Source: Acidobacteriota bacterium (lineage in GTDB: Bacteria > Acidobacteriota > UBA890 > WLXD01). From it: DNA of 64,000 nt. The position numbers and the translations under genes are program-made. This document shows, piece by piece, positions 59,955 through 64,000 of this stretch. The stretch spans positions 4,608,001-4,672,000 of the forward strand of contig CBDFKD010000002.1 of assembly GCA_965248695.1 (NCBI GenBank). Reading direction: 5' to 3'. Within the stretch, counting starts at the first letter, position 1. Every line of letters begins with the position of its first letter. Below the pieces are notes generated by a model. It did no database searches, was not told the origin of the DNA, and saw only the letters and a program-made list of their open reading frames with translations.

Positions 59955-61334
59955 CTATGAGGGCTCGGTCCCGGCCGGCAGACGGATCTCCACCAGTAGG
60001 CCTCCATCGTCCGGGTTGGTGGCGCCGATGGTTCCTCCGTGAGCCCGTACGGCTCGTTCGCTGATCGACAGGCCGAGTCCGCTGCCCCCCCGCTCGCGAT
60101 CTCGTGCCGGGTCGACGCGATGGAACGGCCGAAACAATCGGCCGAGCTCGCTCTCCGGTACGCCAGGACCGTGATCTCGAACGCGGATCAGGGCTTCCGA
60201 CGAGCCGTTGTCCTGCGTGATAACCAGCGACGTCTCCACTGCGGATCCCTGCGGCGCATAACGAATCGCGTTGCGCACGACGTTCTCTATGGCGCGCCGG
60301 AGCAGTTCCTCGAACCCGGTCGTGACGCACGGTCCGGTAGCGTCGAGTCGGACCGACTTACCGCACTCGCGGGCCTCGTAGTCGGCGTCGGCGACCACCG
60401 CCCGCACCAGCGCCAGTAGATCCACCGGTCGTCGATCGACGAGCGCGTCCGGGTCCTGAAGGCGTGTCAGCGCCAGCAACTGGCCAATCAGGTCGTTGAG
60501 CCGCTCCGTTTCCTGCTCGATGCGGTCGAGCGCATCGTTTGCCGCATCGTCGCTGTGTCGCCGCGCCAGCCCGAGGGCGACGTAGAGCCGGGCAAGTGGT
60601 GAGCGCAGCTCATGCGAGATGTCGCTGAGCAGCTGCCGCTGGTTCTCCAACAGCGAGCCGATTCGCTCGGCCATGTTGTCGAAGTCGCGACCTAGAGCGG
60701 CCACCTCGTCACGACGGCCCCCGAGCTCAGCGCTGACGCGCGTGTCGAGCTCGCCGTCGGCAAAGCGTTGCGTCGCCGCACTGAGGGTACCTACCGGCGA
60801 CAGCATGTAGCGCGCCATTGCGTAGCAAACCAGTCCGGAGGTCAGCAGGACTCCAAGCCATCTGACGACGATGGGAAGAACGTTGGGTGGCGGCAGGTCG
60901 AGCCGGCTGGGAAGGCGTTGGACTACCGCATAGGTATCGTTGAGACGGTTTATGAACGAGCGTCCGGCGTAAGGCCCTGAGCCACGAAAGCCCCCATGGA
61001 TCATGCCGGTATCCAGGGTCTCGGCGGCTGCCGCCCGAGCCGCGTCGGGCGCAGTACGCCCGGTAATCTCGTTCAACTCGACGTCGAACACGAACGGGTA
61101 AGGAGCCCCCTCCTCCTCCAGATCTGACATGAACTGAGCGATCGCCTCAGGTGATCGGCGCCCCAAGTTGACCGCCACGCGACCGGCGAGGACCAAGCGC
61201 TGCCCGGTGAGCGCCCGGAATCGGTCGACGACTTCTTCGTTCTGGATCAGTTGGGTAGGCAACGAGAACGCTGACCACACCAGCGCCATCGCCAGCCAGA
61301 ACCACAGGAAGATCTTGATGAACAGCCGGTGCAT
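59955..61334 (-). CDS. HAMP sensor histidine kinase (CpxA-like)
   Basis: 2 TM, HAMP, DISHELRSPL H-box, ENVVRNA, DHGPG, GSGLGLSI. Confidence 0.95.
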   Translation of the reverse strand: MHRLFIKIFLWFWLAMALVWSAFSLPTQLIQNEEVVDRFRALTGQRLVLAGRVAVNLGRRSPEAIAQFMSDLEEEGAPYPFVFDVELNEITGRTAPDAARAAAAETLDTGMIHGGFRGSGPYAGRSFINRLNDTYAVVQRLPSRLDLPPPNVLPIVVRWLGVLLTSGLVCYAMARYMLSPVGTLSAATQRFADGELDTRVSAELGGRRDEVAALGRDFDNMAERIGSLLENQRQLLSDISHELRSPLARLYVALGLARRHSDDAANDALDRIEQETERLNDLIGQLLALTRLQDPDALVDRRPVDLLALVRAVVADADYEARECGKSVRLDATGPCVTTGFEELLRRAIENVVRNAIRYAPQGSAVETSLVITQDNGSSEALIRVRDHGPGVPESELGRLFRPFHRVDPARDRERGGSGLGLSISERAVRAHGGTIGATNPDDGGLLVEIRLPAGTEPS

Positions 61335-61337
61335 GGG

Positions 61338-61903
61338 CTAGTGGCCTGTAACAGATGATCGTTGCATATCGCAGATGGGATTTGCGGGTGAGATCAAGGC
61401 GCGGTGAGGAAGGCGATGTGAGCAGGCCGTGGTGAGAGTGTGATGGGTCTGGTTGTGCCGCCAAGGGCGCAGATCCAAGGCGCCGCGCCGCCGGTGATGC
61501 CAGTGCGCATCATCCAGGAGCGGCAACGCTGGAGATGCGCCCTTGGCGGCACAACCCTTCGGGCAAGTGGGAGTTACGGGCGATGACGGCGTCTCTCCTC
61601 CTCCACGATGACGCCAGCATCGCCTCGTCGTCGATCCTTGCCCTCGCCCGTAAGAGTCCCACTTGCCAGACCCATCACACTCTCACCACGGCCTGCTGGG
61701 GCATCGTCGACGAGGCGCAACGCCGATATCGCCCGCAACTGCCCATCTGTCCGCAGGCCCATCAAGAGAACAGTGGCGCAATCGGCCCGTCTGCCCCGTT
61801 GCGCCTCCTCCAAGATGGGCAAACATCGTCTCGTCGTCGCGCCTGGCATCCGGTCCCATTTCGCCACCACGATATGCAACGATCATCTGTTACAGGCCAC
61901 TAG
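61338..61903. mobile_element. Outer MITE-like non-autonomous element, perfect 34-bp TIRs, CTAG/TA target
   Basis: CTAGTGGCCTGTAACAGATGATCGTTGCATATCG (61338-61371) and its exact reverse complement (61870-61903); removing the element restores ...AAC TAG CCC ATG CAC... between regulator and kinase. Confidence 0.9.
61421..61697. mobile_element. Inner nested MITE-like element, perfect 32-bp TIRs
   Basis: AGCAGGCCGTGGTGAGAGTGTGATGGGTCTGG (61421-61452) and its exact reverse complement (61666-61697); it splits a hairpin motif of the outer element. Confidence 0.8.
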
Positions 61904-62619
61904 TTTCCTGACAGCGCGCGCTGGTCGGTACGTGTCGCGGGCAGCGTGTAGACATAGCCGATTCCGCGAATCGTCTTGATACGCTCGGCGCCACCTTGAC
62001 CGATACCGAGCTTACGGCGCAGGTTGCTGACGTGCATGTCGACGCTACGATCCAGAGCCGAGTACTCGCGGTCGAGCACATCCAGTGTCAGGCGCTCGCG
62101 CGACACCACCTTGCCGGCCGCTCGCATCAGCCGTTCCAGCACCTCGAACTCGACGGCGGTGAGATGAACCTCATCGCCGTCGCGTACGGCGGTGCGCGCG
62201 CCGACGTCGAGCCGCACGTCGCCGACCTCGAGCAGCAATCCATCGGAGGTGTCGCGCTCGTCGGCGCGGCGCAGAATCGCCCGAATTCTAGCCACCAGCT
62301 CGCGCGGGTTGAACGGCTTCGGTAGATAGTCGTCGGCGCCCATTTCGAGTCCGACGATGCGGTCGATGTCGTCGCCTCGGGCAGTGAGCATCAACACCGG
62401 TATCTGCGAGATGGACCGCAATCGGCGAAGAAGCTCGAAGCCGTTGATGCCCGGGAGCATGACGTCCAGCAAAACCATGGCGTAGTCGCCGGCAAGCGCC
62501 GCCTCCAGCCCGGCATCGCCGTCGCCAACGGCTTCGACCTCGAACCCCTCGGCGCGCACGTACTCGCTCACCAGCTCGTAGAGCTCGGCATCGTCGTCGA
62601 TTACCAGGATGCGCTGCAT
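61900..62619 (-). CDS. OmpR/CpxR-family response regulator
   Basis: ILVIDDD, LLDVMLPG, MLTARG, GADDYLPKPF, RSVDMHVSNLRRKL, IKTIRGIGY. Confidence 0.96.
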   Translation of the reverse strand: MQRILVIDDDAELYELVSEYVRAEGFEVEAVGDGDAGLEAALAGDYAMVLLDVMLPGINGFELLRRLRSISQIPVLMLTARGDDIDRIVGLEMGADDYLPKPFNPRELVARIRAILRRADERDTSDGLLLEVGDVRLDVGARTAVRDGDEVHLTAVEFEVLERLMRAAGKVVSRERLTLDVLDREYSALDRSVDMHVSNLRRKLGIGQGGAERIKTIRGIGYVYTLPATRTDQRALSGN

Positions 62620-62720
62620 GAACACAGCTCCGCCCAATCGCGTACGGTAGCAAGTCGTGAGCTTAGCATCGGATCTGCCGGCGGCGGCGCGAGACGTCGG
62701 TAAAGAAACGTAAGGAACCC

Positions 62721-64000
62721 ATGACGATACATAGCTCCGTGGGCTGTCTGGCGGTCACGTCTTTGTGTCTGTCCGGCCTGGTGCCGGGTGTCGGCGCCAA
62801 GGTGATCGATGCGACATCGAGCTTGTCGACCGCGGAACAGACGGATGGCGCCGAGATATTCTCCACCTCGTGCGCCGGTTGCCACAGCGCCGCCCAGAGC
62901 GGCCGCACGCCAGGGGCCTTCTCGCTCGCCCAGTTGTCACCGCGAGCGATCGTCGCGGCTCTCGAGGACGGCGTCATGCGCGCCGAGGGCGCCGAGCTGA
63001 CTGCCGAGCAGCGAGTGTTGGTGGCTGAGTTCCTCAGTCGCAGGCCGTACGCGACGGAATCGTTACCGGAGGCGGCGTTTTGCACCGATCGTGGGTTCGC
63101 ACCGCTCGATGTCGACGCCGTATCGTGGATGGGGTTTGGCGGCGACCCTGAAGGAACGGGGTTTCAGGCTGCCGAGCGCGCCGGCCTCGACGCGGCGGAC
63201 GTACCGCGCCTCGAGCTGCGATGGGCATTCGCGTTTCCCGATGTTGGCCAGGTGCGCACCAAGCCCACGGTCGCCGGCGAGATCGTCCTCGTCGGGGATC
63301 AACTCGGGGGCCTCTACGCCATCGAAGCAGCGACGGGGTGTGTCCGGTGGAGATTCGATGCCGACGCCGCCATCCGCGGCGCTGTTCTCTTGGACGAAGA
63401 CGCGGATGGCCGCTCGCTGGCCTACTTCGTCGATTTTCGCACCAGCGCCTATGCCCTCGATGTGGCCGCCGGGACGTTGGTCTGGAAGACCCGTGTCGGC
63501 TGGCATCCGGAGTCGAACAATACCGGCTCGCCGGCGCTGCACGACGGACGCCTGCTCATTCCGATCTCGACGATGGAGGTGGTTACCGCCGGCAATCCGG
63601 AATACGAGTGCTGCACGGCGTCCGGAGCCGTAGCTGCGCTCGATACGGCAACCGGCGATGTGCTCTGGTACCACCGCGTCATCCCCGACTATGCGGAAGA
63701 GGCGGGACGGAACGCCGCCGGCACCCAGCTCTACGCGCCGTCCGGTGCGCCGGTGTGGGCGAGTCCTACGCTCGACCTGGCCCGAGGGCTGGTGTACTTC
63801 GGCACCGGCGAGAACTACACGCATCCGAGTACCGACACCAGCGATGCCATTCTGGCCATCGACATGCAGACCGGCGAGGCGGCCTGGTCGTTTCAGGCTA
63901 CCGAAGCGGACGCTTTTACCATGGCCTGCATGACGGCGGAGAACCGCGACAACTGTCCGACGCCGATTGGTCCCGACCTCGACTTCGGCATGGCGCCCAT
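62721..64000 (+). CDS. Cytochrome c + PQQ-binding beta-propeller dehydrogenase (polyvinyl-alcohol-dehydrogenase-like), truncated by the window end
   Basis: Open frame to the window end (so absent from the ORF track): signal peptide, CAGCH heme motif, LELRWAFAF, YECC, PSGAPVWASP, YFGTGENY, GPDLDFG. Confidence 0.88.
   Translation, partial: MTIHSSVGCLAVTSLCLSGLVPGVGAKVIDATSSLSTAEQTDGAEIFSTSCAGCHSAAQSGRTPGAFSLAQLSPRAIVAALEDGVMRAEGAELTAEQRVLVAEFLSRRPYATESLPEAAFCTDRGFAPLDVDAVSWMGFGGDPEGTGFQAAERAGLDAADVPRLELRWAFAFPDVGQVRTKPTVAGEIVLVGDQLGGLYAIEAATGCVRWRFDADAAIRGAVLLDEDADGRSLAYFVDFRTSAYALDVAAGTLVWKTRVGWHPESNNTGSPALHDGRLLIPISTMEVVTAGNPEYECCTASGAVAALDTATGDVLWYHRVIPDYAEEAGRNAAGTQLYAPSGAPVWASPTLDLARGLVYFGTGENYTHPSTDTSDAILAIDMQTGEAAWSFQATEADAFTMACMTAENRDNCPTPIGPDLDFGMAP

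Follow-up and report, generated by a model that had tools for sequence, protein, structure and literature searches.

Nested MITEs and their covarying, strand-biased hairpin core at a two-component locus of an Acidobacteriota bacterium

MITEs are usually viewed as passive shells, in which the only functional parts are the ends bound by the transposase. Hairpin-forming repeats are also known as landing places, some IS elements targeting the loops of REP sequences. Among the described systems, one of the closest to the locus considered here is RUP of Streptococcus pneumoniae, a 107 bp MITE attributed to IS630-Spn1 (Oggioni and Claverys 1999, as summarised in a passage of PMC2229807). IS630 itself prefers TA inside 5'-CTAG-3' (Tenzen and Ohtsubo 1991, cited in a passage of PMC2170065), and the TA is duplicated on insertion (same passage of PMC2170065). 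REP and REPIN sequences, in turn, are defined in a passage of PMC3733652 by a GTAG or CGTC head on a palindrome of 20-40 nt.

The window analysed here, a stretch of 64,000 nucleotides (G000:C2:4608001-4672000), belongs to a soil acidobacterial genome of 5.89 Mb (host genome G000; 65% G+C, two contigs, completeness 96.4%). In this window, 566 bp occupy the entire gap between a response-regulator gene and a histidine-kinase gene (Table 1). The original prediction, made from the letters of the window, had described here four diverged copies of a core motif of about 52 nt, each capping its own long stem, and had proposed them as a candidate new structured RNA or ssDNA motif. All four cores were recovered: core I, split in two, and core II in the minus orientation, cores III and IV in the plus orientation. 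Their similarity to each other was also found by a repeat search, as the direct repeats D1-D4 with 71-81% identity. The region is, with near certainty, a pair of nested MITEs, in which a two-core element has inserted into another two-core element; the clustering of four cores therefore results from nested transposition and not from a local RNA gene or a stand-alone new class of motif.

Table 1. Features of the composite element and the flanking genes (positions in the window)
Feature	Position	Strand	Remarks
Composite element, family A MITE with family B MITE inside	61338-61903		566 bp; 34-bp perfect TIRs
Composite borders, TA duplication	61339-61340 and 61901-61902		CTAG on both sides
Family A left TIR	61338-61371	+	34 nt, 100% against 61870-61903 (inverted-repeat search)
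Family A module 1, left stem arm	61372-61394	+	alignment of 24 A copies; folds
Core I, 3' half (minus-strand reading)	61395-61418	-	parted from the 5' half by the B insertion; direct repeat
Family B MITE in core I loop	61421-61697	.	277 bp; 32-bp perfect TIRs
Family B TIR pair	61421-61452 / 61666-61697		32 nt, 100% complementary
Family B module 1	61451-61556	-	long hairpin, core II (61476-61529) at tip
Family B module 2	61559-61670	+	hairpin, core III (61588-61640) at tip
Core I, 5' half (minus-strand reading)	61702-61724	-	sequence, direct repeats, A-copy alignment
Family A module 1, right stem arm	61725-61749	+	A-copy alignment, folds
Family A module 2	61773-61867	+	imperfect hairpin, core IV (61797-61846) at tip
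Family A right TIR	61870-61903	-	terminal CTAG gives the TAG stop of the response-regulator gene
Flanking gene, OmpR-type response regulator	61900-62637	-	Pfam Response_reg and Trans_reg_C; stop codon within target CTAG
Flanking gene, histidine kinase	59955-61334	-	Pfam HAMP, HisKA, HATPase_c; start codon 4 nt beyond the element

The site is empty at the orthologous regulator-kinase junction of three congeneric genomes: G003 reads GGCG-CTAG-CTCCC, with a single CTAG, and G004 and G002 have TTAG at this place. Therefore, the element inserted at the CTAG holding the TAG stop of the regulator gene, with duplication of the TA, and the insertion parts the start codon of the kinase from its former ribosome-binding site. 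A Pfam search gave no match for the five ORFs overlapping the element. The locus is present in four DNA-like sequencing runs and, as a small share, in two metatranscriptome runs; the contigs break at the repeat.

A BLAST search of the region against its own genome returned about 310 matches, which fall into two element families. Family A has a TIR of 34 nt and measures 278-291 bp when intact, with 34 paired, TIR-bounded copies in the genome; family B has a TIR of 32 nt and a length of about 275 bp, with 29 full-length copies and 14 shorter derivatives, the internal deletions of which differ from copy to copy. The host genome has 132 termini of family A; among the other four members of the genus, G001 has a single one and the remaining three have 50-130. 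Both families share one plan (TIR, stem, core in minus orientation, stem, linker, stem, core in plus orientation, stem, TIR), so that the nested composite displays the core order minus, plus, minus, plus, and whole elements fold as a three-way junction of the TIR stem and two hairpin arms. One-module B elements, considered as independent small MITEs, turned out to have junctions varying from copy to copy and were assigned to deletion products of two-module B. The core was also considered as a coding sequence and this was rejected: an ATG-led frame present in some A copies is lost in the 290-bp subfamily, the variable positions do not fall on every third base, and the loop varies in length, by 6-8 nt among cores. 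The original prediction had allowed for membership of a known MITE family. As to kind, the elements are indeed MITEs; a literature search (Acidobacteria MITEs, IS630 MITEs and CTAG, palindromic intergenic repeats) found no published description of families A and B, and in a MITE census (PMC11602168), the supplements of which could list them, the passages matching the search mention neither the families nor the conserved core.

In uninterrupted A copies, the very place taken by the 277-bp B element in the window copy reads GATG, a loop of 6-7 nt and CATC; B therefore sits within the loop of the first core of A. Four A elements of the host genome carry B in this loop. One of them, at C2:733546, apparently holds it in the opposite orientation, and another holds a different B subfamily. 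Since orientation and subfamily differ among the four carriers, at least three separate insertions of B into the same loop have occurred by our count, along with copying of the composite as a unit; a full-length relative of the composite lies at C2:4883272-4883822 with 92% identity to the window copy. Overall, B termini adjoin core halves at eight places, five in A elements and three in B elements.

The termini of both families point to a preference for CTAG, 206 of 275 A and B termini being flanked by CTA|G, i.e., lying inside CTAG; no wider target consensus was seen around these 275 termini. CTAG is four times rarer in the genome than expected from base composition (4485 found vs 18976 expected), and 24 of 85 intact core loops contain it, which is enough to account for the loops being targeted repeatedly. 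Relative to other CTAG sites, core loops seem enriched about tenfold in B insertions. This is not pressed as a result, because the majority of CTAGs are intragenic, so that insertions there would be lost, and some of the nested copies are duplicates of a single event.

Thirteen of 16 bases agree between the A terminus and the termini CTAGTCTCCTGTAACAG of an IS630-family IS in G007, a genome of the same family and another genus. This IS measures 1207 bp, has an open frame of 370 aa with DDE_3, contains no core and is adjoined by B-type MITEs at a shared CTAG. In the host genome, DDE_3, DDE_Tnp_1, DDE_Tnp_4 and Y1_Tnp (PF01797) gave 0 matches each; of four further genomes of the genus that were searched, three have DDE_3. 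The searches yielded neither an autonomous element whose termini are exactly those of A or B nor an autonomous partner for family B. The sole IS-spaced pair of B TIRs in the own genome (4449 bp), tried as an autonomous candidate, encloses SelA and an unnamed ORF of 893 aa and no transposase. Lone A-type termini adjoin ordinary genes in G012 and lie at contig ends in G027, and short elements that are unrelated and coreless, in Tahibacter and in an Acidimicrobiia MAG, likewise end in exactly the 20-nt A terminus. The public records in which this terminus is abundant are Acidobacteriota MAGs. The elements thus have IS630-like ends and are orphans in this genome, and their core does not come from the known relatives of the parent IS. 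For the A termini, an assignment to IS630 fits better than one to IS5/IS1182.

The stems described by the original prediction were recovered. The inverted repeat enclosing core II extends over 61451-61477 / 61530-61556 (27 nt, 93% complementary, the first 21 perfect, as predicted), and the one enclosing core III was found at 61559-61572 / 61657-61670; the two outermost pairs of inverted repeats (34 and 32 nt) are additional to those predicted. The view that each core caps a long stem of its own is strongly borne out for cores II and III, the modules of which fold as DNA at -48.3 kcal/mol (z = -9.0) and -31.1 kcal/mol (z = -5.4), and weakly for core IV in this copy, where the module reaches -15.2 kcal/mol (z = -0.3), no better than shuffled sequences. 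The predicted retention of a fold despite sequence change also holds: the enclosing stems of families A and B show no similarity to each other, yet they are complementary within each family.

The core was aligned over 119 unique arm pairs, taken from the host genome and the loci of other genomes and anchored on the GATG/CATC mini-hairpin; its consensus begins CGGCGTTGC. Watson-Crick pairing appears at fixed distances from the mini-hairpin. Counted outward, Watson-Crick pairs prevail at positions 1 and 3; C.T stands at position 4 in 82/119 (69%) and T.C at position 5 in 115/119; position 6 is paired in 90% (CG 78, GC 29); C.T returns at position 7 in 111/119 and T.C at position 8 in 115/119; a helix follows at positions 9-13, each of which shows several pair types, and position 16 is always G-C. 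The C.T/T.C mismatches are kept in 95-99% of the 119 unique cores at k5, k7 and k8 and in 69% at k4; on the complementary, purine-rich strand, these mismatch doublets become tandem G.A/A.G. From the tip outward, the core thus consists of the mini-hairpin, two mismatch doublets parted by single covarying pairs, and a covarying helix of 5 bp. The clue that led to this register was a swap of arms in the main B subfamily, in the second core of which the CCT-type and CGT-type arms are exchanged relative to the window copy, giving C-G for G-C at matching positions. An initial guess at the structure, with an outer GGCG/CGCC helix, showed no covariation and was replaced by the register anchored on the mini-hairpin.

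Covariation, proposed as a check by the original prediction, was indeed found. Given the sequences only, RNAalifold folded the purine-rich strand into 13 pairs at -13.7 kcal/mol, eight of them with compensatory changes, vs only a 4-bp hairpin at -2.8 kcal/mol for the other strand. Counting of pairs in an alignment of 38 sequences showed 92.9% of the cells paired and 47 cells with double changes vs 16.4 in shuffles. The covariation score reached 0.280 vs 0.101 in shuffles, none of 500 being as high, a significance overstated by the kinship of the sequences; controls with a slid register, which are free of that weakness, stayed at or below 0.074. A covariance model recovered the core copies of the genome with E of 1e-17 to 1e-20. 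A search of 60800-62400 against Rfam at permissive E-values produced only four sub-threshold matches to plant and animal microRNAs (23-28 bits vs gathering thresholds of 100-268) and none to the core. A hammerhead-like three-way junction, entertained by eye, was given up, since the boxes conserved in hammerheads are missing from the strands of the junction and the Rfam ribozyme models gave no match. Integron attC sites carry an inverse core and a core site, RYYYAAC / GTTRRRY, at the base of the hairpin; compared by eye, the ends of the present core do not fit this consensus. Overall, the core probably represents a constrained fold.

The two strands of this fold are not equivalent. The purine-rich strand folds better in 148 of 178 modules, by 6.4 kcal/mol on average, an advantage that partly reflects the nearest-neighbour bonuses for purine mismatches. 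Mismatches of the outer stems yield G.U on the purine-rich strand vs G.U on the other strand in a ratio of 360 vs 112; after removal of stems more than 90%, 80% and 70% alike, the ratio becomes 121:54, 79:40 and 55:28, with sign-test P = 0.00015, 0.0034 and 0.087, respectively. This wobble bias does not stem from a local mutation bias of one strand, because each element holds both orientations of the core. The bias also fits an idea of the original prediction, namely that paired opposite orientations ensure a sense copy whichever strand is transcribed. Within the core, the wobble counts are reversed (397 vs 292), mostly owing to invariant positions, which may be unpaired. The relevant fold would then be that of the purine-rich strand, with its tandem G.A/A.G mismatch doublets.

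Copies outside the locus, sought by the prediction as well, are abundant: an iterated nhmmer profile (E <= 1e-3) counted 103 cores in the host genome. In a sample of 151 genomes from across the phylum, the covariance model has matches in 48 (a tally including the unpublished genome G071, which adds one), in more than 20 families and often with E < 1e-12. The core-bearing elements comprise at least 10 distinct TIR classes by eye, the automatic count of 21 being inflated by register shifts; between these classes, the mean identity is 0.55 for the first 20 TIR bases vs 0.78 for the core. A pattern scan of all species genomes additionally found full cores in three MAGs of other phyla, two of them Gemmatimonadota and one Brocadiia; mis-binning is possible, although one of the contigs measures 188 kb. 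Pattern matches at 10 Actinomycetota loci were taken as chance, nhmmer finding no core in seven and a partial match in three; by eye, the Actinomycetota loci L155 and L220 look like ordinary GC-rich sequence and not like a MITE context. Cores in 27 loci of other genomes lie among ordinary housekeeping genes, with no transposase among the 68 neighbouring ORFs. In one G012 element both cores point in the same direction, so the tip can flip. Five loci elsewhere (L131, L162, L177, L199, L233) contain only the inner stem pair, 90-98 bp long, with no recognisable outer TIR.

Selection on the resident copies was judged from private mutations. Among 46 A copies of the own genome and its congeners (106 core columns), 26 of 76 singletons fall in cores vs 29.2 expected, and among 26 B copies 39 of 83 do so vs 32.3 expected. 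A halving of the mutation rate in cores is thereby excluded (P = 0.026 for A, P = 5e-6 for B), at a limited power that leaves weaker selection compatible with the counts. Private transitions at paired positions yield G.U on the purine-rich strand in 21 cases and on the other strand in 23. Hence, resident copies decay regardless of the fold, and the differences between lineages respect it; the constraint therefore seems to act on the ability to spread and not on a service to the host at each site. The original prediction had read the kept structure as a sign of selection for a fold or a protein-binding site; the absence of purifying selection in resident cores argues against a host function of the copies at this locus.

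A role of the core in spreading has to be weighed against explanations placing its function, if any, elsewhere. It is unlikely that the core works as an RNA element at the level of the host, with the purine-rich hairpin of the transcript (GGAGGAGG-like runs) stabilising or insulating the RNA, directing its processing, or being bound by the ribosome or an RNA-binding protein. MITEs located on stop codons would then be transcribed as 3' ends or intercistronic RNA, and the two opposite cores would serve either direction. Such a service would agree with the strand-specific wobble bias of the stems, the covariation of the core, the presence of one core per sense in each element and the insertions at gene ends. 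Empty A-type element contigs also occur in two metatranscriptome libraries, though presence in a library does not itself show transcription. The private mutations tell against it, since they build up in resident cores as fast as elsewhere and their transitions have no strand preference; besides, no terminator-like T run follows the stems, and the parting of the kinase start from its former ribosome-binding site looks costly and not useful. The neutral decay of resident copies would be expected if the core had no function at all and were a relic of the common ancestor of the MITE families, made to look conserved by youth, gene conversion and horizontal spread, with the complementary changes arising from hairpin-templated repair. 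The many copies per genome would offer conversion partners, and the elements have crossed phyla. This explanation is nevertheless improbable: within the same elements, the TIRs and stems have diverged far more than the core (the 0.55 vs 0.78 given above), templated repair would erase the mismatch doublets, kept at three positions nearly always and at the fourth in 69%, and a mutation bias at the level of the locus cannot yield a wobble bias tied to core orientation.

In REP- or REPIN-like systems, the hairpin module itself would be the mobile or recognised unit, handled as ssDNA by an HUH enzyme (Y1, RAYT-like), and the MITEs would merely carry it. The imperfect hairpin with kept mismatches and covarying stems, the inverted arrangement of the doublet and the strand-specific constraint on spreading lineages are all reminiscent of such systems. 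It is very improbable that the present core belongs to them, given that the host genome has no Y1_Tnp gene, that the core groups listed in it are all A or B elements or their fragments, that its one-module forms are heterogeneous deletion products of two-module B, and that the module stems show neither TA nor any other target duplication. Finally, the position between regulator and kinase genes could suggest a regulatory RNA, or an array of protein-binding sites, that is specific to this locus and controls the two-component system. This is practically dismissed by the orthologous loci of three congeners, which lack the whole 566 bp, and equally by the 92% identical composite elsewhere in the genome and the roughly 100 cores dispersed over it.

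The preferred reading is that of nested MITEs with a core involved in spreading. A and B both insert at TA within CTAG, as IS630/Tc1-mariner transposases do; B landed in the hairpin loop of the first core of A, and the composite was then inserted or copied into the CTAG that ends the response-regulator gene. Folded as a single strand, either ssDNA or RNA, the module may act in cis and be needed by a lineage for its spreading; a transposase partner or a host factor may bind to it. Such a cis-acting need would explain why the core is kept behind many TIR types while resident copies decay neutrally. That the role of the core lies in spreading is judged to have a little less than an even chance. 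The statement as a whole, joining nested MITEs, a constrained fold and a spreading role, is somewhat favoured. More tentative, and by itself doubtful, is the proposal of a portable, strand-specific fold, a tandem G.A hairpin, required in cis by MITEs with unrelated ends in at least three phyla.

What remains odd is the core, a hairpin that is portable, covarying and strand-biased and keeps its mismatch doublets. To our knowledge, cut-and-paste IS630/Tc1 transposition makes no use of single strands, and a strand-specific fold is odd for such elements for this reason. An internal fold of 55 nt, better conserved than the ends of the MITE, covarying, strand-biased and unprotected in resident copies, forms a pattern that points to a cis-acting requirement for spreading, undescribed for elements of the IS630 type. 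If a portable fold of this kind is indeed required in cis, the mobilisation or establishment of IS630-type MITEs would pass through an ssDNA or RNA stage or need a still-unknown protein reading the fold, neither of which belongs to the current cut-and-paste picture of Tc1/IS630. The core offers a small, concrete object for mobility and binding assays, one hairpin with three testable features. It is also of value for annotation, since many soil Acidobacteriota have about 100 hairpins of this kind in each genome, which would otherwise be called again and again as candidate small RNAs.

Compared with the known systems, families A and B resemble RUP in being short, non-coding and of high copy number, with IS630-family-like TIRs, insertion at TA and a tendency to land in mobile elements (passages of PMC2229807 on RUP). 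They differ from it in their 275-290 bp with two covarying hairpin modules, whereas the same passages report no internal functional motif for RUP, as well as in the lack of a matching transposase in the genome and the occurrence of the same core behind many TIR types. With IS630 they share the TA in 5'-CTAG-3', its duplication and termini starting directly after the TA (a passage of PMC2170065), but IS630 elements are autonomous and 1.1-1.2 kb long, and the related IS of G007 lacks the core module. The imperfect hairpins, inverted doublets, covarying stems and intergenic location recall REP, REPIN and BIME sequences (as described in passages of PMC3733652 and PMC2817692); unlike these, the core has no GTAG or CGTC head (as the head is defined in a passage of PMC3733652), G000 has no RAYT gene, and the modules of the host genome always lie inside TIR-bounded, TA-duplicating elements. 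Correia/NEMIS elements of Neisseria are likewise TA-flanked MITEs with long hairpins and an internal functional motif (the IHF sequence of NEMIS), and exist with and without the internal segment (passages of PMC2229807 on these elements). The internal motif of Correia is a protein-binding site in duplex DNA, whereas the motif described here is covarying and strand-biased, i.e., that of a folded single strand.

At the insertion site, the purine-rich stretch that formerly preceded the start codon of the histidine kinase gene (61334) is now split off by the MITE (window positions 61330-61345 and 61895-61915); at the empty sites of congeners, the coding strand reads GGGAGCTAGCGCCATG. In the window copy, the end of the MITE lies directly before the kinase start, where no obvious ribosome-binding site is seen; hence, translation of the kinase may be impaired after the insertion or uncoupled from that of the response regulator. 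The two-component system is adjoined by a PQQ-dependent dehydrogenase gene.

Gene adjoining the two-component system (window positions)
Feature	Position	Remark
PQQ-dependent dehydrogenase, quinohaemoprotein type	62721-63998	cytochrome c domain at N-terminus

Short derivatives of MITE family B (81-189 bp) occur at 14 places in the contig harboring the window, each with a different internal junction; hence, the hairpin modules were lost through independent deletions rather than gained by insertion. Rearrangement of another kind is suggested by a B-type MITE from genome G012 (L125:1337-1615), whose two cores (the conserved hairpin tips) point in the same direction, against the minus/plus rule, as if one tip had been inverted between its stem arms.

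Genome G007 contains 43 matches to DDE_3, the IS630-family transposase domain. In all seven loci read from this genome (L092, L101, L105, L108, L111, L114 and L117), one end of the 1.2-kb IS and the terminus of a B-type MITE meet at one and the same CTAG, so that the MITE and the IS form a tandem insertion at a shared target. In genome G027, a variant family A terminus, TAGTGTCCTGTAACAGAAG, is located at three contig ends (contigs C41, C44 and C53; L084, L085), a pattern typical of assembly breaks caused by a multicopy full-length IS; an autonomous relative may therefore be present in G027.

The cores are also found in MITEs that have AACAGGCTGTTGA-type termini and one or two modules (L130:1448-1728, L228 and L222), hosted by Acidobacteriota, Gemmatimonadota and Brocadiia MAGs; their flanks are not clean CTAG in either of the two loci read (L130, L228). 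Core-less elements flanked by exact matches to the 20-nt terminus of family A occur as well, with lengths of ~166 bp in Tahibacter soli (L025:400-568) and ~110 bp in an Acidimicrobiia MAG (L064:400-510). These short elements, from hosts belonging to other phyla, are quite different from the core-bearing MITEs; thus, one type of IS630-like end has been combined with more than one cargo.
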